Virus record (IMG/VR): IMGVR_UViG_2875722834_000001
Span: 1 to 7,740 of that record
From: a virus
Taxonomy: Duplodnaviria; Heunggongvirae; Uroviricota; Caudoviricetes
Length of the DNA stretch: 7,740 nucleotides
Strand: one strand, 5' to 3'
The notes under the pieces were generated by a model. That model was not told the DNA's origin. It made no database searches and saw only the letters and a list, made by a program, of their open reading frames with translations. Made by a program: the position numbers and the translations under genes. The first letter of the stretch is position 1; each line of letters starts with the position of its first letter. Shown here piece after piece: positions 1-7,740 of the stretch.

Positions 1-170
1 ACCTGCACTCCAATTATTGACCAGTTCCTCACCGCGCCTCCCTCTCCGGCGGCGCGAATGAACATCTTATTGGCTATCACATCCGACACAAATGTTGCCA
101 TCCCATTGCTTAATCGAATAAAAATCAGGCTACATGGGTGCTAAATCTTTAACGATAACGCCATTGAGGC

Positions 171-200
171 TGGTCATGGCGCTCATAAATCTGGTATACT
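171..200 (+). promoter_or_regulatory. Candidate sigma70 promoter for ssrA: -35-like TGGTCA (171-176), 18-bp spacer, -10-like TATACT (195-200)
   Basis: Hexamers read directly from the sequence. TATACT ends 14 nt upstream of the mature tmRNA 5' end at 215, consistent with a short 5' leader removed by RNase P. The -35 match is weak. No ORF of 60 aa or more lies in 1-214, so this stretch looks intergenic. Confidence 0.4.
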
Positions 201-214
201 TACCTTTACACATT

Positions 215-577
215 GGGGCTGATTCTGGATTCGACGGGATTTGCGAAACCCAAGGTGCATGCCGAGGGGCGGTTGGCCTCGTAAAAAGCCGCAAAAAATA
301 GTCGCAAACGACGAAAACTACGCTTTAGCAGCTTAATAACCTGCTTAGAGCCCTCTCTCCCTAGCCTCCGCTCTTAGGACGGGGATCAAGAGAGGTCAAA
401 CCCAAAAGAGATCGCGTGGAAGCCCTGCCTGGGGTTGAAGCGTTAAAACTTAATCAGGCTAGTTTGTTAGTGGCGTGTCCGTCCGCAGCTGGCAAGCGAA
501 TGTAAAGACTGACTAAGCATGTAGTACCGAGGATGTAGGAATTTCGGACGCGGGTTCAACTCCCGCCAGCTCCACCA
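215..577 (+). ncRNA. ssrA: tmRNA (SsrA, transfer-messenger RNA), mature 363-nt form
   Basis: Starts GGGGCTGATTCTGGATTCGACGGG and ends GGTTCAACTCCCGCCAGCTCCACCA (tRNA-like acceptor/T-arm with CCA). The internal tag reading frame at 304-336, GCA AAC GAC GAA AAC TAC GCT TTA GCA GCT TAA, encodes ANDENYALAA-stop, the E. coli/Shigella-type tag. The whole gene matches my recollection of E. coli ssrA. Confidence 0.95.
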
Positions 578-585
578 AATAAATC

Positions 586-620
586 AAGGGGTTACGTAAA
601 AGCGTAGCCCCTTTTTCTTT
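586..620 (+). terminator. Intrinsic terminator downstream of ssrA
   Basis: Left arm AAGGGGTTACG (586-596) pairs with right arm CGTAGCCCCTT (603-613), with one G-U pair, around loop TAAAAG, followed by the T-tract TTTTTCTTT to 620. Seen directly in the sequence. Confidence 0.6.
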
Positions 621-635
621 GGTAGTGGCGGCAAA

Positions 636-674
636 ATGGCGACAGACTTTTGCGTCCATCTTGCCTGTCGCCAT
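636..674. repeat. Perfect 10-bp inverted repeat ATGGCGACAG (636-645) / CTGTCGCCAT (665-674) with a 19-bp spacer; the octamer CCATCTTG is also repeated directly (656-663 and 671-678)
   Basis: Read directly from the sequence. It lies between the ssrA terminator and the RBS (AAGAGG 689-694) of the 701-1183 gene. Possible operator, recombinase or IHF arm site, or RNA hairpin. Confidence 0.5.
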
Positions 675-700
675 CTTGAAATCATGCAAAGAGGTTTCAC

Positions 701-1183
701 ATGGAAGAACTTCACTTTGTTTACATCAATGCAAATGGTCGTATCGGAGTTCACTCAATACAGAGCATCAGTTATAGCGAAAATCATATACAGGGCATTT
801 GTAAGAACACCGATCGAATAAAAACCTTCCGAAAAGACCGCATTCTTAAACAGTACGATTCACCAGAACAAGCCATTCAGGAATGCGCGTCATTCCTCCC
901 CGAAAACTACTCACACCTCACTAAGCAGTCTGGTCCGAAAAAAAATACATTCGATGTGTGTTTCACCGGATTTAAGAAAGCAGATAAAGAAAGATTGGTT
1001 GATAAGGCGAATGAACAAGGATTAACGGTAAGAACCTCTGTAACCCAAAGCCTTCAGATGCTCTGTTGCGGTTACAATGCAGGCCCATCAAAAGTATCGG
1101 CAGCCAGGATGAAAGGCACAATCATCATAGATGAGCCTGGCTTTATACATTTTCTTGAAACGGGTGAGATCCCAGATGAATAA
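701..1183 (+). CDS. Hypothetical 160-aa cargo protein: N-terminal WYL-like domain fused to a C-terminal BRCT-like domain
   Basis: Strong RBS AAGAGG 6 nt upstream of the ATG at 701. The N-terminal half contains RIKTFRKDRI, resembling the R-x-F-R-x-D-R-I hallmark at the end of WYL domains. The C-terminal half (NTFDVCFTGF ... GLTVRTSVTQSLQMLCCGYNAGPSKVSAARMKGTIIIDEPGFIHFL) resembles the BRCT fold pattern of NAD-dependent DNA ligase (LigA) C-termini. The region is visibly AT-rich compared with the adjacent phage core. Domain calls are by eye and need HMM confirmation. Confidence 0.7.
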   Translation: MEELHFVYINANGRIGVHSIQSISYSENHIQGICKNTDRIKTFRKDRILKQYDSPEQAIQECASFLPENYSHLTKQSGPKKNTFDVCFTGFKKADKERLVDKANEQGLTVRTSVTQSLQMLCCGYNAGPSKVSAARMKGTIIIDEPGFIHFLETGEIPDE

Positions 1184-1211
1184 AAACCTGCCGTAGCAGG
1201 TTCTCTTTCTC
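1176..1211. terminator. Bidirectional intrinsic terminator between the convergent 701-1183 gene and ogr
   Basis: Perfect 7-bp stem AACCTGC (1185-1191) / GCAGGTT (1196-1202) around loop CGTA. On the minus strand the stem is followed by TTTTTATT; on the plus strand by CTCTTTCTC. Confidence 0.55.
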
Positions 1212-1428
1212 AAAAATTCATATGCCCCTGACCACCTGGCAATGGATGTGGAGGAGCAGTAGCAATCAGTGCGGGTGTCACAATAAACCGGACCACTGTT
1301 TCATGGGTAACAAAAGTGCTCCCGCAGTTAATATTTTGGCACTGGCAGTAACGCTCTTTGGTGCTTTCAGTTACTTGAAAACTGCTCCTTGTGTGTGCCG
1401 CATGACCACACTTTGGACAATTCATCAT
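1210..1428 (-). CDS. ogr: Ogr-type zinc-finger late-gene transcriptional activator (P2 Ogr / 186 B / P4 Delta family)
   Basis: The ORF 1210-1473 contains MMNCPKCGHAAHTRSSFQVTESTKERYCQCQNINCGSTFVTHE..., with the C-x2-C ... C-x4-C spacing and overall resemblance to P2 Ogr (about 72 aa). The upstream 16 codons of the six-frame ORF are probably not translated, so the start is set at the internal Met at 1428; the start is uncertain by one codon (1425 or 1428). Confidence 0.85.
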   Translation of the reverse strand: MMNCPKCGHAAHTRSSFQVTESTKERYCQCQNINCGSTFVTHETVVRFIVTPALIATAPPHPLPGGQGHMNF

Positions 1429-1496
1429 ATCCAGATCCCTACCTTTGCTATCAGAATCATTGTAATGATACACAAAATATCAACATTGAGAACACT

Positions 1497-2597
1497 TTAT
1501 TCCATTTCAAGATCATCAATCTTCACTTCGAGTTCAATACTGGTCGTAAAACCATTATCCGGGCTGACGGTATGAGTCAGAGTCGTAATGGTCCATTCCG
1601 CATCATCTATCGGTTGTTTAAAGCCACTAACTTTCACTGGCATTTCCGTGTAAAGATCTGCCCGCCCTTCCGCCAGTTGTAGCGAGAATGACGCAACGCC
1701 GCGTTGCAGGCGTTCCCACTGCATTTTCGCTGCCCGTTCAGCGTTGCTCCGGTTGGCATAAGTGCGATTAAGTACCAGCACGTTTTCATCCGTACCCACC
1801 AGGTAATCGCCCTGCTTCGCTTCCGGCTCTTTCTTCTGCTTCTTAGTTCTGCGCTTACGCTTCACCGTGGTACTTTCTTTCTTCGCAGGTTCGCGGGTAT
1901 GCAACCAGCTGGCAATTACGCCCGTGTAGGCTCCGCGATCTGCCAGGGTAAATCGGTGACTGTCGCCGTCCTTGCGTGTGATAGTGATCACTGGCAGAGG
2001 TTTACCAGTGGCGCTTTTGCCCTGCCCCTGCCGGATGAATAACAGATTGCCATTTTTCACCGACGCGATGGCACCGTACTGTCGCGCCAGCCGCATCAGA
2101 AAACTGCCGTCACTCTCATTAGTCTGGTCTATATGCTCCACGGGCTTATCCGACAGGTCTTTACCCAGTGCCATCTTCAGCTTGTGCCGCGCGGCTATTT
2201 CCTTCACCACTTCCCCGACGGTGGTCTTATGCCACGATTTTTCACGGCGGGTATTCAGCGTTTCCCGAAAATCAGCACTTCGCGCCCGAATAGTCAGGCG
2301 GTCCGGTGCGCCAGTGTGTTCAATCTCGTCCACTGTGAATGCCCCTTTCGGGAAAAGCGGCTGCCCCTTCCAGCCCAGCGCCAGCGTAATAACCGCACCA
2401 CGGCGCGGCAGCACGATTTTTCCGTCAGCGTCATCCAGCTCCAGATCAAGCTGGTCCGCTTCAAAGCCCCGGTTATCCGTCAGCGTCAAACTCATCAGGC
2501 GGTTATCCAGCACAGTGGTGATATCCCTGCCCTCAATACTGATGCTGAATGCGGGAGTTTTGTTGCCTTTGTTAAGCAGTTCAGAGCTGAAATTCAC
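1497..2597 (-). CDS. D: P2 gpD-like tail protein (late control D family), 366 aa
   Basis: Size and position match the P2/186 order T-U-D-ogr. Its start overlaps the stop of the upstream U gene by 4 bp (ATGA-type coupling). GC-rich codon usage typical of the phage core. The identity rests on synteny, not on a recalled gpD sequence. Confidence 0.85.
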   Translation of the reverse strand: MNFSSELLNKGNKTPAFSISIEGRDITTVLDNRLMSLTLTDNRGFEADQLDLELDDADGKIVLPRRGAVITLALGWKGQPLFPKGAFTVDEIEHTGAPDRLTIRARSADFRETLNTRREKSWHKTTVGEVVKEIAARHKLKMALGKDLSDKPVEHIDQTNESDGSFLMRLARQYGAIASVKNGNLLFIRQGQGKSATGKPLPVITITRKDGDSHRFTLADRGAYTGVIASWLHTREPAKKESTTVKRKRRTKKQKKEPEAKQGDYLVGTDENVLVLNRTYANRSNAERAAKMQWERLQRGVASFSLQLAEGRADLYTEMPVKVSGFKQPIDDAEWTITTLTHTVSPDNGFTTSIELEVKIDDLEME

Positions 2598-3079
2598 GAC
2601 AGCAGCCCTCCCACCGTTTTACTGATATCGCTTAAGGCAGACGTTGCCGTGTCCTGCAGATTATTCAGTTGCGCACTGAGATCACCGAACATATCGGACA
2701 GGGATTCATCCACTCGTTTGAGCGACAGGGTGAACTCAATCCGGCGCGGCATACCGTCGCGGAAAAACTCCGTTTTAGTCTGATTCAGTCCCTCAATCAC
2801 ATACATGCCGTAAATCGTGCCGCTGCCTTCAATCAGGGGCCATGCTTTCCCCTGTTCTGCCATCTGCTCCAGTGCCAGCAACGACAGCCTGCCGCCTGTT
2901 ATTTCCGGCATAAGAACACCGGAAAGCGTCAGCATGTCGTTTTCCGGTCCCAGAAACTGCGTGGACGGACGTCGGTTTACCCGACTGTTTGCCGCATGTC
3001 GCCAGCTGCGTTGATACTGCAGTTCCTGATACGGAACGGTGCGCAGCATAAACACGTACAATCCCAGCACCATCATCAT
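2594..3079 (-). CDS. U: P2 gpU-like tail protein, 161 aa
   Basis: About 160 aa, located between the tape-measure gene and D, with 4-bp overlaps at both ends. The start is one of three consecutive Met codons (MMM). Confidence 0.85.
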   Translation of the reverse strand: MMMVLGLYVFMLRTVPYQELQYQRSWRHAANSRVNRRPSTQFLGPENDMLTLSGVLMPEITGGRLSLLALEQMAEQGKAWPLIEGSGTIYGMYVIEGLNQTKTEFFRDGMPRRIEFTLSLKRVDESLSDMFGDLSAQLNNLQDTATSALSDISKTVGGLLS

Positions 3080-4476
3080 GCGTCGTATCCCCCCTGATCG
3101 CTGTAGTTACTCCTGGCTTTTGCCTTCAGCCTGCGTTCACGTTCATCAAGCTGGCGTGCCACCTCCCGCGCAATATCCTGCGCACTTTGTCCTGGCTGCG
3201 TCTGAATGATGATCTGCGTCGGTGCCTCAATCCGTTGAACGAGCGGCACAGTGGCTGCGCGACTCACAATTGCTTCTCCACCTTTCGCGGGAAGTGCCAA
3301 GGGGTGCAACGGTGGAAGCTCTGCTGGCGCGGCAGCAACGCCCATCATTCCGGCAACAACGGCAGCCAGTGCAGCTGTATTTCTCCGGCTGGTCACATTT
3401 GCCGGGCCGTTAACAATTTCCGGCCCGTTTTCACCGACGATGCCAAACTGCCCGCGCGGGATATACCCGCCGCTGTCATACATCCCCGCAAAGCCATATC
3501 CCCATGATGGAAAACCACCCGATGGCATCATCACTTTACCGTCTGCATTCACCGTCGCAGGTTGCTGACGCGTCACGCTTTCCGGCAGTTTTGCCTTTGC
3601 GGCCTCTTTACTGACAATGCCGAGCTTCTCCAGCAACCAGGAAACGCCGGATTTCAGGGAGTCCAGCGGATGCATGACCATATTCAGCCCTTCCGCCAGT
3701 GCCTCCCCGAATCGCCGCCCCATTGCCGCTGCGCTCTGCAGTTCGGCAGAGGTCGACTTAACGGGCGTCAGCAGATCAGTAAACCAGCCCCACAGCGCCT
3801 GCACTTTGTCGCCAATCCACTGGAACACGGGCTTAAGCGGTTCGAACGCTGCACTGATGGGACCTGCCGCCGCTTTGAATCCTTCCACCACGCCACCGAG
3901 AAATGCGGTGATGGGTTGCCAGTATTTCCAGACAACCAGCGCCACGCCCGCCAGTGCAGTAACCACAAGACCTATCGGACTGAGCAGAGCACCTAACAGA
4001 CCAGATATGGCATACAGGGCAACGCGCAGCATCGCCAGTGGACCAGATGCCAGTACTCGCAGCACCGTGCCTGCGGCGGCCAGTCCACCGCGCAGTACCG
4101 CCAGAGGATTCATAAACATCACAGCAACAGCACGTAAACCGGATACCGCACCTGCAGCAACACGCCCGATCTCTGCGGTTGCACTCATGACGTAATGTGG
4201 CAGTTTCTCTTTTGCCACCTCATTAATCGGTACACATGGCAGGCAGTGAATCTGAGCCAGAAAACCATCTACCAGCGTTGAATCTTCAGTCAGATCGGTA
4301 AGCAACCAGATTTCTGGTGCAGTTAATAAATGAGGTTGAGCTGGGTTCAGCTTGTTCCGCAGAATCTGCACATTCATGCCTGCACGTTCTGCCAGTTGCA
4401 CCAGGTTGTGGCGCAGTGCAAAAGCCCTACAGGCTTCATCGAAATGCGGATGTTTGGAAATCTTGTAATCAAACAT
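3076..4476 (-). CDS. In-frame chimeric ORF (466 aa): CII-like regulator N-terminus (about 100-120 aa) fused to the C-terminal part of a tail tape-measure protein (gpT-like); probable deletion remnant
   Basis: The N-terminus [45 protein letters not shown]...[25 protein letters not shown] matches what I recall of phage 186 CII. The rest is Ala/Gly/Val-rich with hydrophobic segments typical of tape-measure proteins and sits directly upstream of U and D. Good SD (AAGGGGGG) before the ATG at 4476. A full gpT in P2 is about 800 aa. Confidence 0.75.
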
Positions 4477-4509
4477 GGTGCCCCCCTTAGAAAGTTCCCA
4501 TAATTGAAC

Positions 4510-4752
4510 TTACTTACCAACAATGACTCGGAAGTTGGAATGACCGAGGGATTCACGGACCTGATCGGTTTTGTACATCAGATAACGCAGGCTTACGCGA
4601 CCTTTGTTTTTTTCTTTCTTGACCATGTACTTAGCAAGTTGACCATGGTGAATTTTTTGGTAAACAGAGCCGCGGGAAATACCCTCCCACTCTGCGAACT
4701 CTGCAGGCGTAGCCATCTCTTTTGGTACACGAATTGAAATATCAGTACTCAT
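4510..4752 (-). CDS. Small HTH DNA-binding protein in the Apl/Cox position (putative excisionase and switch regulator), 80 aa
   Basis: It is the first gene of the operon leading into the CII-like gene, divergent from the cI-int operon, as for 186 apl or P2 cox. The segment TPAEFAEWEGISRGSVYQKI looks like an excisionase-type helix-turn-helix. Assignment is mainly by synteny. Confidence 0.65.
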   Translation of the reverse strand: MSTDISIRVPKEMATPAEFAEWEGISRGSVYQKIHHGQLAKYMVKKEKNKGRVSLRYLMYKTDQVRESLGHSNFRVIVGK

Positions 4753-4873
4753 AGTGCAGTATCTCTTACTTTGTGTGCGTGTTAGTTCGTTTTAGCCCGT
4801 CTCTTAAACTCTCACATCAAGAGACATGAAGACATTACGATCTTGATTCAAGATTGTCAAATGGAGATTACCA
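4753..4873. promoter_or_regulatory. Lysis-lysogeny switch region between the apl-like gene and cI, with candidate promoters and operators
   Basis: On the minus strand there is a consensus -35 TTGACA (plus coordinates 4855-4860), a 17-bp spacer holding the perfect 15-bp palindrome ATCTTGATTCAAGAT (4840-4854), and a -10-like TAATGT (4832-4837). A 7-bp inverted repeat GTCTCTT (4799-4805) / AAGAGAC (4819-4825) and several TCTCTTA-like repeats (4761-4810) are also present. The cI RBS is GGAG at 4863-4866. The plus-strand cI promoter may lie within the start of the apl-like gene (TTGAAA at 4734-4739), as in the face-to-face promoters of 186 and P2. Confidence 0.55.
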
Positions 4874-5506
4874 ATGTTAAACATCAGAATGGGTTCCGAT
4901 ACGGGAGGTAAGGCAGCTATTGAAAGGCTGCTTGAGGCTTATGGATTCACAACTAAGCAGGCATTAAGCGAGCACCTGAATGTCTCAAAAAGCACTATGG
5001 CAAACAGAGTGTTACGTGACAGCTTTCCTGCTGACTGGATAATTCAGTGCGCACTAGAAACCGGTGTTTCGTTGCTTTGGTTAGCTACAGGACAGGGAAG
5101 CATGAAAGGAGGAGCTGAGCCTGAGAAAAGTTCTCATAATGAGAACAAACAAGCAATTAAACCGTTATCCAAACTCATAACTCCAGCTATTCCTAAAGGA
5201 ACCCTGGAGAATGGACAACTCAGTATTGATGAAGAGATTTTCCTAGACCACAGCATATTACCTGCAGATTATGAAGAATCGATGTTCTTAGAAACCCCTA
5301 CTGATTGTTATCTCATCGATAAATCAATTAAACAGGTCAGCAATGGATTCTGGCTTATCAATATTGATGGAATGATTATTGTTGCAAAAATCATGCGGAT
5401 TCCCGGCAATAAGATTGTAGTAAATCAAGATGAAGCGTCTTTCGAGTGCTCTACTGATGATGTGGAAGTTATTGGGCGTGCAGTCAAAGTAATAAAGAGT
5501 ATCTAA
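4874..5506 (+). CDS. cI: Phage 186 CI-like immunity repressor, 210 aa
   Basis: The motifs LEAYGF, CALETGVSLLWLATGQG, GFWLINIDG, RIPG, FEC and IGRAVKV align with what I recall of 186 CI (CEAYGF, CALETGANLQWLLTGEG, GLWLVDIEG, KLPG, FEC, LGRVVGV). It lies immediately upstream of int on the same strand, as in 186. Confidence 0.85.
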   Translation: MLNIRMGSDTGGKAAIERLLEAYGFTTKQALSEHLNVSKSTMANRVLRDSFPADWIIQCALETGVSLLWLATGQGSMKGGAEPEKSSHNENKQAIKPLSKLITPAIPKGTLENGQLSIDEEIFLDHSILPADYEESMFLETPTDCYLIDKSIKQVSNGFWLINIDGMIIVAKIMRIPGNKIVVNQDEASFECSTDDVEVIGRAVKVIKSI

Positions 5507-5508
5507 AC

Positions 5509-6525
5509 ATGACTGTCAGAAAACAGCCAAACGGTAAATGGTTGTGCGAGTGCTATCCCAATGGACGCAATGGCAAGCGCGTGCGTAAGCAATTTGCTAC
5601 GAAAGGCGAAGCCATTGCTTTTGAAAGCTTCACAATGGAAGAAGTGAACAAAAAACCATGGCTGGGGGAAAAGGAAGATCGGCGACACCTATCAGAATTA
5701 ATTGAGCAGTGGTATTCCCTGTATGGTCAAACACTCGCAGACCCCAAGCGCCTCATGGCGAAACTTAGAATTATCTGTAATGGTCTAGGCGATCCCATCG
5801 CCTCAGAACTAACAGCCGGTGACTTTACGAAATACCGCGAAGCACGGTTAAAAGGTGAAGTACGAAATGAAGATGGCACGCTTATGTCGCCCGTTAAGCC
5901 CCGCACGGTAAACCTTGAACAGCGCAATCTATCATCGGTGTTCGGTACATTAAAAAAACTAGGACACTGGTCAGCACCAAACCCGCTGGCAGGACTTCCG
6001 ACCTTCAAAATTACCGAAGGTGAGCTGGCTTTTCTTTCCGTGGACGAAATCAAGCGCCTGTTGGCTGCATGTGCTGAATCTCAAAGCCCGAGCCTACTAA
6101 TGATTGCAAAAATATGCTTAGCTACCGGCGCACGGTGGAGTGAAGCCGAAAACCTTCAGGGCCACCAAATATCGAAATACCGAATTACTTATACAAAGAC
6201 AAAGGGCAAGAAAAACAGAACAGTACCAATATCTCAAGATCTGTATCACGAACTCCCCAAAAACAGAGGGAAGTTATTCACGCCATGCAGAAAATCTTTT
6301 GAGCGTGCAGTAAAAAGAGCAGGTATTGACTTGCCAGAGGGCCAGTGCACGCATGTATTGCGCCATACATTCGCTAGTCACTTTATGATGAATGGCGGAA
6401 ATATTCTTGTATTGAGAGATATTTTAGGGCACTCAGATATAAAAATGACAATGGTCTATGCCCATTTCGCACCAGAACATCTTGAAGATGCTGTTACTAA
6501 AAACCCCTTATTTAACTTAAAGTGA
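5509..6525 (+). CDS. int: Tyrosine site-specific integrase, P2/186 family, 338 aa
   Basis: The C-terminal catalytic region HVLRHTFASHFMMNGGNILVLRDILGHSDIKMTMVYAHF carries the R-H-x-x-R ... Y signature of tyrosine recombinases; an upstream conserved Arg lies in LATGARWSEA. It starts 2 nt after the cI stop, suggesting translational coupling. Confidence 0.95.
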   Translation: MTVRKQPNGKWLCECYPNGRNGKRVRKQFATKGEAIAFESFTMEEVNKKPWLGEKEDRRHLSELIEQWYSLYGQTLADPKRLMAKLRIICNGLGDPIASELTAGDFTKYREARLKGEVRNEDGTLMSPVKPRTVNLEQRNLSSVFGTLKKLGHWSAPNPLAGLPTFKITEGELAFLSVDEIKRLLAACAESQSPSLLMIAKICLATGARWSEAENLQGHQISKYRITYTKTKGKKNRTVPISQDLYHELPKNRGKLFTPCRKSFERAVKRAGIDLPEGQCTHVLRHTFASHFMMNGGNILVLRDILGHSDIKMTMVYAHFAPEHLEDAVTKNPLFNLK

Positions 6526-6534
6526 TAAATAAAA

Positions 6535-7740
6535 ATGCATATTCAACAAGAACTCGATGAAGAACTTAATAATCTTTTTGACACTATTAGAAAAAAATCA
6601 AGTATTCGACCACCAATTGAGATTGAAAAAAACCTTACTTTGATAGATGACTTCGCTCTAAAATGCAGTAAATTCCGGGGTTGTTTAGTAGATTACATCC
6701 AGGAAAATGATAACAGGTTAAGTTTACGCTTGCGCAATAGACTTAGAGCTGTAGATATCATGCAGAAAGAAATCGTCTCGTGTTTAGAGTGTTTTTTATC
6801 AGGGGATATTAAGTCGGCATATGACTCATTTGAAAGTATGCTAGAGCCACGAACTATATCTCGTCATATTGAAAATATATGCATACCTCTTTCTGACTTA
6901 TGTAATGAAGATAAACCATTATTCCGCGTTAGAAAATCTGATACGCCACTTACATCAAGAAGAGATATGTTTCATATTCCGTTCAGTCAGCGTCACTTTG
7001 TTAGAGCACAGAGATTTTCAGTTGCTGGTCTACCCTGTTTATATTTAGGAACATCTCTTTATATATGCTGGAGAGAAATGGATAAGCCAGATTTTGATAA
7101 GCTATATATATCTGCCTACAAGATCGATAAAAATAATGACTCAAAGGTACTAAATATAGGACCTGATTTTTTATATAAACAGAGATCTATATTAGAGTCA
7201 AAAAGAAAGAACAAATATGATTTCAATACCAAACTCTCATATTTAGCACTTTGGCCTTTGATAATTGCATGCAATTATTTAAAAAAATATGACAATGCTT
7301 CCTTTGTACAAGAATATATTATCCCCAATCTTTTGATGCAATGGATCAGTCGGAACAGCAATGAGAATGTTGTTGGTATAGCCTACCGCTCAACAAAATT
7401 ACCTGCTAATGCCTTAGGTAGCAGAGGAATAAATGTGGTACTTCCTCCAAAAGTGCGTTACGAGGAGATGGCCAATAATGAATTTTGTCCAAATCTAGCG
7501 AAAATTTTCAAATTCACATTGCCTGTATCTTGGCAGGTCCTAAAAACAGTTGAGTACGTGCCTGAATCAGTTGCACAATCCGATCGAGAGAATCTCAGCA
7601 GAAGGCTACGAAGAAGAAAAAATCGTGAGCTAACAGGAAGCATAGATGATGAAATTTTGAACATCTATAATTTAACTGACTTTTATAAACTCGAAACTTG
7701 TATGGATGAAATTCAAGTATATGCCCATATTAAACCATGA
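6535..7740 (+). CDS. Hypothetical 401-aa cargo protein with a central RES-domain signature (putative NAD+-targeting toxin or defence effector)
   Basis: RFSVAGLPCLYLGTSLYICWRE gives Arg160-x9-Tyr170-x10-Glu181, and GIAYRSTKLPANALGSRGINVVL gives Ser286, matching the conserved Arg/Glu/Ser and their spacing in RES-domain toxins. There are long N- and C-terminal extensions, including the basic stretch RRLRRRKNR. The region is very AT-rich. The ATG is 9 nt after the int stop with no recognisable SD. The stop codon is at the last three bases of the window. Confidence 0.75.
   Translation: MHIQQELDEELNNLFDTIRKKSSIRPPIEIEKNLTLIDDFALKCSKFRGCLVDYIQENDNRLSLRLRNRLRAVDIMQKEIVSCLECFLSGDIKSAYDSFESMLEPRTISRHIENICIPLSDLCNEDKPLFRVRKSDTPLTSRRDMFHIPFSQRHFVRAQRFSVAGLPCLYLGTSLYICWREMDKPDFDKLYISAYKIDKNNDSKVLNIGPDFLYKQRSILESKRKNKYDFNTKLSYLALWPLIIACNYLKKYDNASFVQEYIIPNLLMQWISRNSNENVVGIAYRSTKLPANALGSRGINVVLPPKVRYEEMANNEFCPNLAKIFKFTLPVSWQVLKTVEYVPESVAQSDRENLSRRLRRRKNRELTGSIDDEILNIYNLTDFYKLETCMDEIQVYAHIKP

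Follow-up and report, generated by a model that had tools for sequence, protein, structure and literature searches.

A perfect 15-bp palindrome lying inside the spacer of a predicted lytic promoter raises two questions about the intergenic region between the apl-like gene and cI of a P2/186-like prophage remnant: is the palindrome the operator of the CI repressor, and is the switch to which it belongs still intact? The region is part of a stretch of viral DNA of 7,740 nucleotides, the whole of which was analysed and is called the window here. We consider it likely that a Cartapus/RE2010-type remnant has kept its lysis-lysogeny switch intact here and that the palindrome is the primary CI operator in the spacer of the lytic promoter pR.

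The remnant adjoins ssrA in an E. coli chromosome and is of the Cartapus/RE2010 type, that is, a degraded P2/186-like virus that is Fels-2-like and of the 186 class. The entire window is 100% identical to E. coli HH107. Its immunity region (4400-5600) shows 100% identity with E. coli LF82 and its prophage Cartapus and 99.6% identity with Salmonella phage RE2010. The genes of the window are as follows:

215-577: tmRNA gene ssrA
after ssrA: an ORF of 160 aa, an Ogr-type zinc-finger gene and the tail genes D and U
3076..4476, minus strand: chimera of cII and the tape-measure gene, downstream of apl, joining the N-terminal 111 aa of CII to a C-terminal part of gpT
4510..4752, minus strand: apl/cox-like gene of 80 aa, heading the lytic operon, a Cox-like excisionase and repressor according to the Cartapus annotation
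4863-4866 and 4874-4876, plus strand: Shine-Dalgarno sequence GGAG and ATG of cI
4874..5506, plus strand: cI, 186-type immunity repressor of 210 aa
5509-6525: int, divergent from apl and co-oriented with cI
after int: cargo ORF, a RES-domain protein according to the Cartapus annotation

The three genes cI, int and the cargo ORF are all co-oriented and separated by gaps of only 2 and 9 bp. Compared with the Cartapus map, about 26 kb are missing from the remnant, and it is this deletion that fuses cII to the tape-measure gene. The deleted stretch takes in the 3' part of cII, the replication genes, the DinI-like/tum-equivalent region, cos, the head and tail genes and the tape-measure gene as far as its middle. 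CII, complete in Cartapus, is cut after about 111 residues in the remnant, where the Pfam domain PF06892 covers residues 10-111 only of the chimeric ORF; positions 1-4145 of the window match the tail-gene regions of other prophages. Cartapus (LF82 prophage 4, NC_070909) and RE2010/ELPhiS differ from the window in being complete genomes of about 33-34 kb, whereas their switch, including cI, apl, the palindrome and both promoters, is the same (100% and 99.6%, respectively). In an LF82 lysogen, whose CI gene is identical to that of the window, transcription of cI exceeds background about 5-fold, with low-level release of Cartapus virions (PMC9928086). The same switch sequence is thus active in LF82/Cartapus and functional in at least one host.

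Two predicted promoters face each other between apl and cI and are accompanied by symmetric elements:

4734..4762, plus strand: pL analogue, consisting of TTGAAA at 4734-4739, a 17-bp spacer and CAGTAT at 4757-4762, facing pR
4799..4825: second dyad GTCTCTTAA-ACTCTCACA-TCAAGAGAC, with 9-bp arms and 1 mismatch, at about +1 to +27 of pR
4832..4837, minus strand: -10 hexamer TAATGT of pR, with a predicted start near 4825
4839..4842: GATC (Dam site) overlapping the palindrome at the end of the pR spacer nearest the -10 hexamer
4840..4854: ATCTTGATTCAAGAT, a perfect palindrome of 7-1-7 form within the spacer of pR, proposed as the primary CI operator (O1)
4855..4860, minus strand: -35 hexamer TTGACA of pR, read from the sequence and ending 13 bp before the cI ATG

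The original prediction had placed TTGACA, a 17-bp spacer, the palindrome and a -10-like hexamer on the minus strand, and each of these elements lies where it was said to lie. The spacer is ATCTTGAATCAAGATCG on the minus strand, and on the plus strand the palindrome reads ATCTTGA-T-TCAAGAT. The same prediction called the promoter consensus-like; the -35 hexamer is perfect, and the -10 hexamer matches TATAAT at only 3/6 positions (T1, A2 and T6, the three best-conserved ones). With -10 hexamers as weak as these, both pR and pL were missed by a consensus promoter scan. What the scan flagged is TTAACA-16-GACAAT (4880-4853), which overlaps pR. The pR hexamers are conserved: TTGAC(A/G) is invariant as the -35 hexamer across all relatives compared, TAnnnT lies 17 bp from it in every immunity type, and the -10 hexamer is invariant in all window-type relatives. 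The -35 hexamer of pL lies within the coding start of apl, and pL is conserved in all Fels-2-like types as well as in Xenorhabdus loci. Transcription from pL is predicted to start near 4769, so that the predicted starts of pR and pL (about 4825 and 4769) face each other at a distance of about 56 bp; in P2-like phages, face-to-face promoters are 40-60 bp apart (PMC7498355).

By itself, the palindrome is statistically unremarkable in the window. Four perfect palindromes with 7-bp arms were seen in the 7.7 kb against 1.09 expected, and the probability of at least one is 0.66; the chance of one falling within one given 17-bp spacer is about 1e-3. With up to three mismatches allowed, a search of the window and of the entire 33-kb Cartapus genome turned up no second copy of the palindrome in either. 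The view that the element goes beyond chance is supported by its position, which is homologous to that in 186 pR, by its conservation together with the same repressor and by covariation of the dyad across immunity types. Taken together, these point to the palindrome being most likely a CI repressor site inside the lytic promoter.

The repressor gene next to it is clearly of the 186 type. CI matches Phage_CI_repr (PF07022, E = 1.9e-30) and Phage_CI_C (PF16452, E = 3.5e-30) and, among PDB entries, 2FJR (the 186 CI structure, E = 9.6e-27) and 2FKD (E = 2.3e-12). The protein is 100% identical to CI of RE2010 and SE479_1PHIH2, and its DNA is 100% identical to that of Cartapus. Lambda-type CI proteins possess a C-terminal S24 domain and undergo RecA-stimulated autocleavage, whereas a Pfam search of the window's CI found no S24 peptidase domain; its C-terminus is Phage_CI_C.

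Conservation within the immunity type was assessed in ten sequences, namely the window, Cartapus, RE2010 and seven prophages of E. coli whose CI proteins are 95-100% identical. In these ten, 6/121 intergenic sites are variable compared with 22/80 third-codon positions of apl (Fisher p = 1.3e-5). Positions 4832-4860 contain 0 of the 6 variable intergenic sites, and none of the six hits the arms of the second dyad or the pL hexamers. This constraint covers the whole intergenic region and does not single out the palindrome, the probability of zero hits in 29 bp at the intergenic rate being P = 0.19. More relatives were added from a scan of viral contigs. Among 27 sequences whose CI shows no change in the N-terminal arm or the helix-turn-helix (HTH), 25 have a perfect palindrome. 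The prophages L078 and L097 have the same CI HTH, yet carry substitutions in one arm of the palindrome. In the more diverged L116, the spacer element is ATCTCGAATCGTGAT, in which pair 5-11 has changed from T.A to C.G on both sides with preservation of the dyad; within the DNA-binding domain, all differences between the CI proteins of L116 and the window lie in the N-terminal arm, and the inner bases of the operator are changed as well. A CI search of genome contigs returned only distant relatives with at most 47% identity over the full protein, which are informative for conservation of pL and pR and not for the operator.

Heteroimmune relatives allow the element to be followed alongside different repressors. 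The set comprised Fels-2, SopEPhi, SEN8, the Klebsiella ST15/ST437 phages and the E. coli prophages L048, L049 and L054, in all of which the pL half of the intergenic region is common and the pR half different. All of them have TTGAC(A/G)-17-TAnnnT, and most have a dyad in the same register with other inner bases:

L048 spacer: ATCACTT-T-AAGTGGT, dyad 6/7
L054 spacer: ATCCCAT-T-ATTGGAT, dyad 6/7
L049 / SopEPhi spacer: ATCCAAT-ATTTGAT, dyad 6/7
ST15phi14.1 spacer: ATCCCGATATTGGAT, dyad 4/7
Fels-2 spacer: no dyad, other inverted repeats present

At least four immunity types have a same-register spacer dyad with differing inner bases. When 12 distinct promoter cores were compared, 69% of the cells are paired compared with 57% in shuffles (0/500), and four of the seven pairs change on both sides. 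In these cores, the 7-1-7 register reaches a covariation score of 0.387; shuffles give 0.170 (0/500) and slid registers no more than 0.156, with shared-ancestry effects only partly controlled. The SopEPhi and SEN8 types have ATCCAATATTTGAT-like dyads in two copies each, and in SEN8/L049-type phages the spacer motif occurs again 30 bp toward pL. This repetition resembles the pair of CI sites, 32 bp apart, at pB of 186 (PMC3675496). Throughout the set, every type has the outer ATC...GAT and, in CI, the predicted recognition helix SKSTMANRxLR; it is the inner bases, helix 2 and the N-terminal arm that vary. A shared outer frame with varying inner bases is the pattern that would be expected of an immunity-defining repressor operator. 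Since both the outer triplets and the recognition helix are shared among heteroimmune relatives, immunity specificity appears to be set by the inner bases of the ATC-N9-GAT frame. The original prediction of an operator in the lytic promoter of the apl-like gene and the cII chimera gains support from the 186-type CI, the 186 pR geometry, the dyads of the heteroimmune types and the working switch of Cartapus.

The earlier reading also drew attention to an inverted repeat, GTCTCTT ... AAGAGAC, near the palindrome, and this second dyad is present as described, with compensatory arms around a conserved core. Its core repeat occupies 4799-4805 and 4819-4825, and its extended arms 4799-4807 and 4817-4825. 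The arms are invariant in all window-type relatives, while ST15/L054-type relatives have different, complementary arms, CAACTTCTAA...TTAGAAGTTG, flanking an identical 9-bp core. Six of ten pairs have changed on both sides and 88.6% of the cells are paired (0/500 shuffles; slid controls at most 0.133), and the element follows the type of CI and not that of Apl. On these patterns, the second dyad would serve CI as a further binding site or, alternatively, form a hairpin at the 5' end of the pR transcript. The TCTCTTA-like repeats, which had been listed as a further feature, do not hold up as an element of their own: the copy at 4800 is the left arm of the second dyad and the copy at 4762 is part of a pL module common to all immunity types, and both were rejected as operators.

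The strength of the second dyad raises the possibility that CI binds chiefly at 4799-4825 and/or at flanking sequences and that the spacer dyad is a by-product of an ancestral symmetric sequence, the promoter itself being correctly assigned. The second dyad covaries more strongly than the palindrome, its arms are invariant even in L116 with its diverged spacer, a good spacer dyad is missing from Fels-2 and ST15phi14.1, and the arm substitutions of L078 and L097 appear to be tolerated. However, the spacer dyad recurs in one register in at least four immunity types that differ in its inner bases, 186 has its annotated central CI operator at the equivalent position, and the switches of the L048 and L049 types have the spacer dyad and lack an equivalent of the second one. 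We therefore regard this alternative as unlikely and retain the palindrome as the primary operator. The two elements could also both be recognized. The inner half-sites of the second dyad, TCTTAA/TCAAGA, resemble those of the palindrome and are 8 bp further apart. One rather speculative model, which we hold to be doubtful, is that in CI proteins of Fels-2-like phages of the 186 class immunity specificity comes not from the recognition helix but, as the changes in L116 hint, from the N-terminal arm together with helix 2, these two contacting the four inner bases in either half of the operator, and that the same CI might also bind the wide second dyad over the pR start. Such a second geometry might echo the two recognition sequences of 186 CI.

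A different proposal is that the symmetric elements act as RNA, in the form of a cI-leader hairpin in the pL transcript, a 5' hairpin in the pR transcript or sense/antisense pairing of the convergent transcripts. The second dyad starts at about the predicted pR start and is predicted to fold as a stem-loop with a 9-10-bp stem and a 9-nt loop, its single mismatch would be a G.U pair in the RNA of the pR strand, and covarying arms around a conserved loop are a classic signature of RNA structure. Against this, neither leader folds better than shuffled sequences (z = -0.06 for the leader with the hairpin and -0.38 for the other leader), no Rfam family was matched, and an A-to-T variant at 4806 abolishes the wobble pair in several relatives. 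As for the palindrome, an RNA loop of 1 nt is impossible, the alternative would be a weak A/U-rich stem, and the element is upstream of the pR start. RNA explanations were set aside on the fold z-scores and the lack of an Rfam match, and are kept as a minority view for the second dyad only; we judge the RNA proposal as a whole very unlikely and keep operator DNA as the preferred reading of the palindrome.

The apl-like protein has 30% identity to 186 Apl (E = 4e-13), and a separate set of sites can be proposed for it:

4779..4794, plus strand: candidate Apl operators, GTGTTA at 4779-4784 and GTTTTA at 4789-4794, direct repeats 10 bp apart

In heteroimmune relatives, the same hexamers occur at intergenic positions 17/27/37/47 with 10-bp phasing, L048 and L049 among them having an identical Apl; by chance, 0.002 phased hexamer pairs would be expected in each window. 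The binding sites of 186 Apl, located between pR and pL, are direct repeats with a spacing of 10-11 bp (PMC7498355). As candidates, the GTGTTA/GTTTTA hexamers would fit Apl operators better than the TCTCTTA repeats do. GTTTTA at the attP of Cartapus was considered as support for these sites and set aside, as it has one clear copy only. These repeats bear on the suggestion that the palindrome is bound by a factor other than CI, be it the Apl/Cox-like protein, a host regulator or a Dam-sensitive control acting through the GATC at 4839-4842. The GATC at the -10-proximal edge of the spacer is kept in all enterobacterial types except SopEPhi, Cartapus carries a Dam methylase gene, and Apl of 186 represses pR as well as pL. 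On the other hand, the GATC covers one arm of the palindrome only, the Apl-type direct repeats are found separately at 4779-4794, and recombination directionality factors, Apl included, use direct repeats about 10 bp apart and not compact palindromes (PMC7498355). Moreover, Apl is identical in prophages of the window, L048 and L049 types and the spacer element differs between them, so the element tracks CI and not Apl. A non-CI factor is the least probable of the readings considered here, and CI is again the preferred ligand of the palindrome.

Two further dyads lie at distances that recall the distal CI sites FR and FL of 186, which flank its switch at about 300 bp on either side:

4492..4511: FR-like dyad AAGTTC-N8-GAACTT at the apl stop, overlapping CATAAT
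5130..5146: perfect 8-1-8 palindrome GTTCTCATAATGAGAAC of 17 bp inside cI, at +256, candidate FL-like distal operator

The FR-like dyad is at -16 from the apl stop, where 186 has its annotated CI site FR at -15. All Fels-2-like phages, heteroimmune types included, have kept the dyad, which is therefore not immunity-specific. The CATAAT that it overlaps could be the -10 hexamer of a CII-dependent promoter, pE. The FL-like palindrome, at +256 of cI compared with about +269 for 186 FL, has 14 consecutive bases, AAAGTTCTCATAAT, in common with the FR-like site of relatives. It contains three sites that vary among same-immunity relatives; it was for this reason not accepted as a firmly conserved site and is retained as a candidate only.

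From the anatomy of the sequence and the homology, conservation and covariation described above, we infer start sites, CI binding, an oligomeric state, looping and transcriptional interference that would combine into the following mechanism. A strong lytic pR on the minus strand would face a weaker lysogenic pL on the plus strand. A CI dimer, probably within a larger oligomer as in 186, would bind the palindrome and keep RNA polymerase off pR, and with pR occluded, apl and the downstream genes would be silent. By analogy with 186 (PMC3675496), CI at pR would also lessen transcriptional interference on pL, and the freed pL would maintain expression of cI-int and probably of the RES-domain cargo gene, read-through from pL being plausible given the co-orientation of and small gaps between these genes. 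The suggestion that the residual genes and the cargo are under CI control would hold in an indirect sense only: cI, int and the cargo would be read from pL, which in 186 is activated indirectly by CI.

SOS induction of 186 depends on Tum, a LexA-controlled antirepressor; the tum of Fels-2 and PSP3 is divided between two ORFs, one for an antirepressor and the other DinI-like (PMC3121763). In Cartapus, gp44 and the DinI-like gp45, located downstream of gpA, may be a split-tum-like pair of this kind with gp44 as the putative antirepressor. Both map to the segment that is deleted from the remnant. Having lost its own tum/DinI-like region, the remnant could be reached by SOS only via the antirepressor of another prophage, and derepression in trans by a co-resident prophage is plausible. 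An ATGTTTG-type CII half-site and the CATAAT are still present in the remnant; with no intact CII, however, the remnant could not re-establish repression through pE.

An apparently intact switch, with the same sequence as in an active phage, makes it probable that CI is still produced by the remnant in E. coli HH107. If so, Cartapus/RE2010-type phages would meet superinfection immunity, transcription of cI-int and probably of the RES-domain cargo would continue, and apl and the leftover tail genes would be silent. The layout is an ordinary one, the expected control region of a known phage type, and the general understanding of such switches is unchanged. What the comparative data add is a concrete operator model for the window's immunity class, for which there seems to be no operator mapping in the literature searched; nor did that literature yield a published mapping for Cartapus or RE2010. 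The CI immunity classes of Fels-2-like phages have been little studied (PMC3448106), and the comparative set leads to operator predictions for heteroimmune prophages of the Fels-2-like group, often found in E. coli, Salmonella and Klebsiella.

Among known systems, the lysis-lysogeny switch of phage 186 is the one that the region matches, a comparison that rests on the annotation of GenBank U32222 and on PMC3675496. The two share the fold family of the repressor, the gene order cII-apl / cI-int, face-to-face promoters, 10-bp-phased direct repeats between the promoters and, as candidate counterparts of the distal sites, a dyad at the FR offset and a dyad about 260 bp into cI. The distance from the pR -35 end to the cI ATG is 14 bp in 186 against the 13 bp found here, and pL of 186 (TTGCGA-17-CATGAT) has its -35 hexamer inside the apl start, the same position as TTGAAA-17-CAGTAT in the window. 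The 186 pR spacer likewise contains an inverted repeat, TATCTC-N8-GAGATA, in the annotated CI operator region, whereas the window has its compact 15-bp palindrome in an ATC-N9-GAT frame. Furthermore, 186 has three CI operators two helical turns apart, covering about 56 bp at pR, whereas no such set is evident in the window, which instead has the wide covarying dyad at the start site. A search for 186-style operators at +/-21 bp from the palindrome centre found nothing similar, the second dyad being centred 35 bp away, and a TGAAGA half-match at 4827 was discarded as a flanking operator as it varies among same-immunity relatives. For Apl, 186 has seven TTGCCA-like sites and the window two clear copies of the GTTTTA type. 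The CI proteins are about 30% identical, with a longer inter-domain linker in the window's CI. The 186 repressor is a 14-mer wheel that wraps or loops DNA, a property to which the window's CI is tied only by homology of its C-terminal domain. The remnant also differs from 186 in its truncated cII and deleted tum region.

Comparison with 186 pR/pL and P2 Pe/Pc had been proposed for this locus, and it separates the two systems, the geometry being as in 186 and a C/Cox switch of the P2 type not being matched. Like the window, P2 (also of the Peduoviridae) has convergent early promoters between the repressor gene and a cox/apl-type gene. However, the C repressor of P2 has about 99 aa and binds direct repeats flanking the Pe -10 (PMC1904263), whereas the window's CI of 210 aa is unrelated to it and the element in the window is a dyad; cII, moreover, is absent from P2. 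The Felsduovirus phages Fels-2 and SopEPhi resemble the window in their architecture, the ssrA integration site, near-identical versions of apl, pL and the FR-like dyad, and the CI helix SKSTMANRxLR, and differ from it in being heteroimmune, with CI proteins 50-58% identical and a different pR-proximal half of the intergenic region.

Three features crowd around pR, the predicted lytic promoter on the minus strand, and its spacer:
4839-4842, a Dam site (GATC) at the end of the pR spacer nearest the -10, overlapping the palindrome proposed as the operator of the immunity repressor CI
4826-4831, a hypervariable stretch of six bases that separates the second dyad from the -10 of pR
4880-4853, minus strand, an overlapping promoter-like site, TTAACA-16-GACAAT, returned by the promoter scan

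The GATC is kept in nearly all enterobacterial relatives irrespective of their immunity type, Cartapus-type phages encode a Dam methylase of their own, and methylation of this site might modulate pR or the binding of CI. Among otherwise near-identical relatives, the six hypervariable bases read ATGAAG, AAGAAA, ACGAAG, GTGAAG or AATCAA within surroundings that are invariant. The overlapping site, with its -35 across the start codon of cI and a -10 that shares bases with the -35 of pR, could be spurious or else mark a tandem start.

Two relatives bear on the repressor and on the apl/cox-like gene, apl. The DNA-binding domain of CI encoded by the IMG/VR contig L116 differs from that of the window in its N-terminal arm alone (MLSIKVGT versus MLNIRMGS), and the operator in the L116 spacer carries four changes, a compensatory pair among them, which hints that the arm contributes to specificity. 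In RE2010, apl has a 1-bp deletion relative to the window, at the equivalent of position 4607; the record annotates a truncated excisionase and only a short repressor ORF, although the full 210-aa CI was found by tblastn.

The 100% match of window positions 1-7740 to E. coli HH107 (NZ_CP116405.1) is reported as two joined pieces, the 7,740-bp query spanning 7,904 bp of the record. A second place in the same record also matches the window and is possibly another P2-like prophage that could supply factors in trans. Two ORFs lie towards the ends of the window:
701-1183, plus strand, a 160-aa ORF between ssrA and ogr with a weak BRCT-domain match
6535-7740, plus strand, the cargo ORF downstream of int, running past the window end

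The Cartapus counterpart of the first is annotated as 'putative exonuclease', and in the LF82 lysogen the Cartapus gene with this annotation was expressed 15-fold over background, one of two prophage genes well above it (PMC9928086). The cargo ORF had no Pfam match; the Cartapus annotation gives it as an NAD+-binding protein with a RES domain.

Seven palindromes with gaps of 0-3 were counted in the window against 1.9 expected, and perfect examples are found within genes:
1693-1707, GCAACGCCGCGTTGC, within the gpD-like gene
5130-5146, GTTCTCATAATGAGAAC, 17 bp, within cI
7263-7276, AATTGCATGCAATT, within the cargo ORF

The palindrome within cI drifts among sequences of the same immunity type. 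In Xenorhabdus prophages (L008-L034), a long inverted repeat occupies the interval from the pR -10 to the facing lysogenic promoter pL, ~40-80 bp upstream of cI. Its outer arms covary among the species (CCCCATAAGATCT-N7-AGATCTTATGGGG in L031, for instance) and enclose a conserved dyad, TCTCA...GAGAAC, similar to the palindrome within cI. That palindrome also has 14 consecutive bases in common with the dyad present in relatives at the stop of apl (window 4492-4511). Since positions 5130-5146 and 4492-4511 match those of FL and FR, the distal CI operators of phage 186, our analysis suggests both as candidate distal operators.
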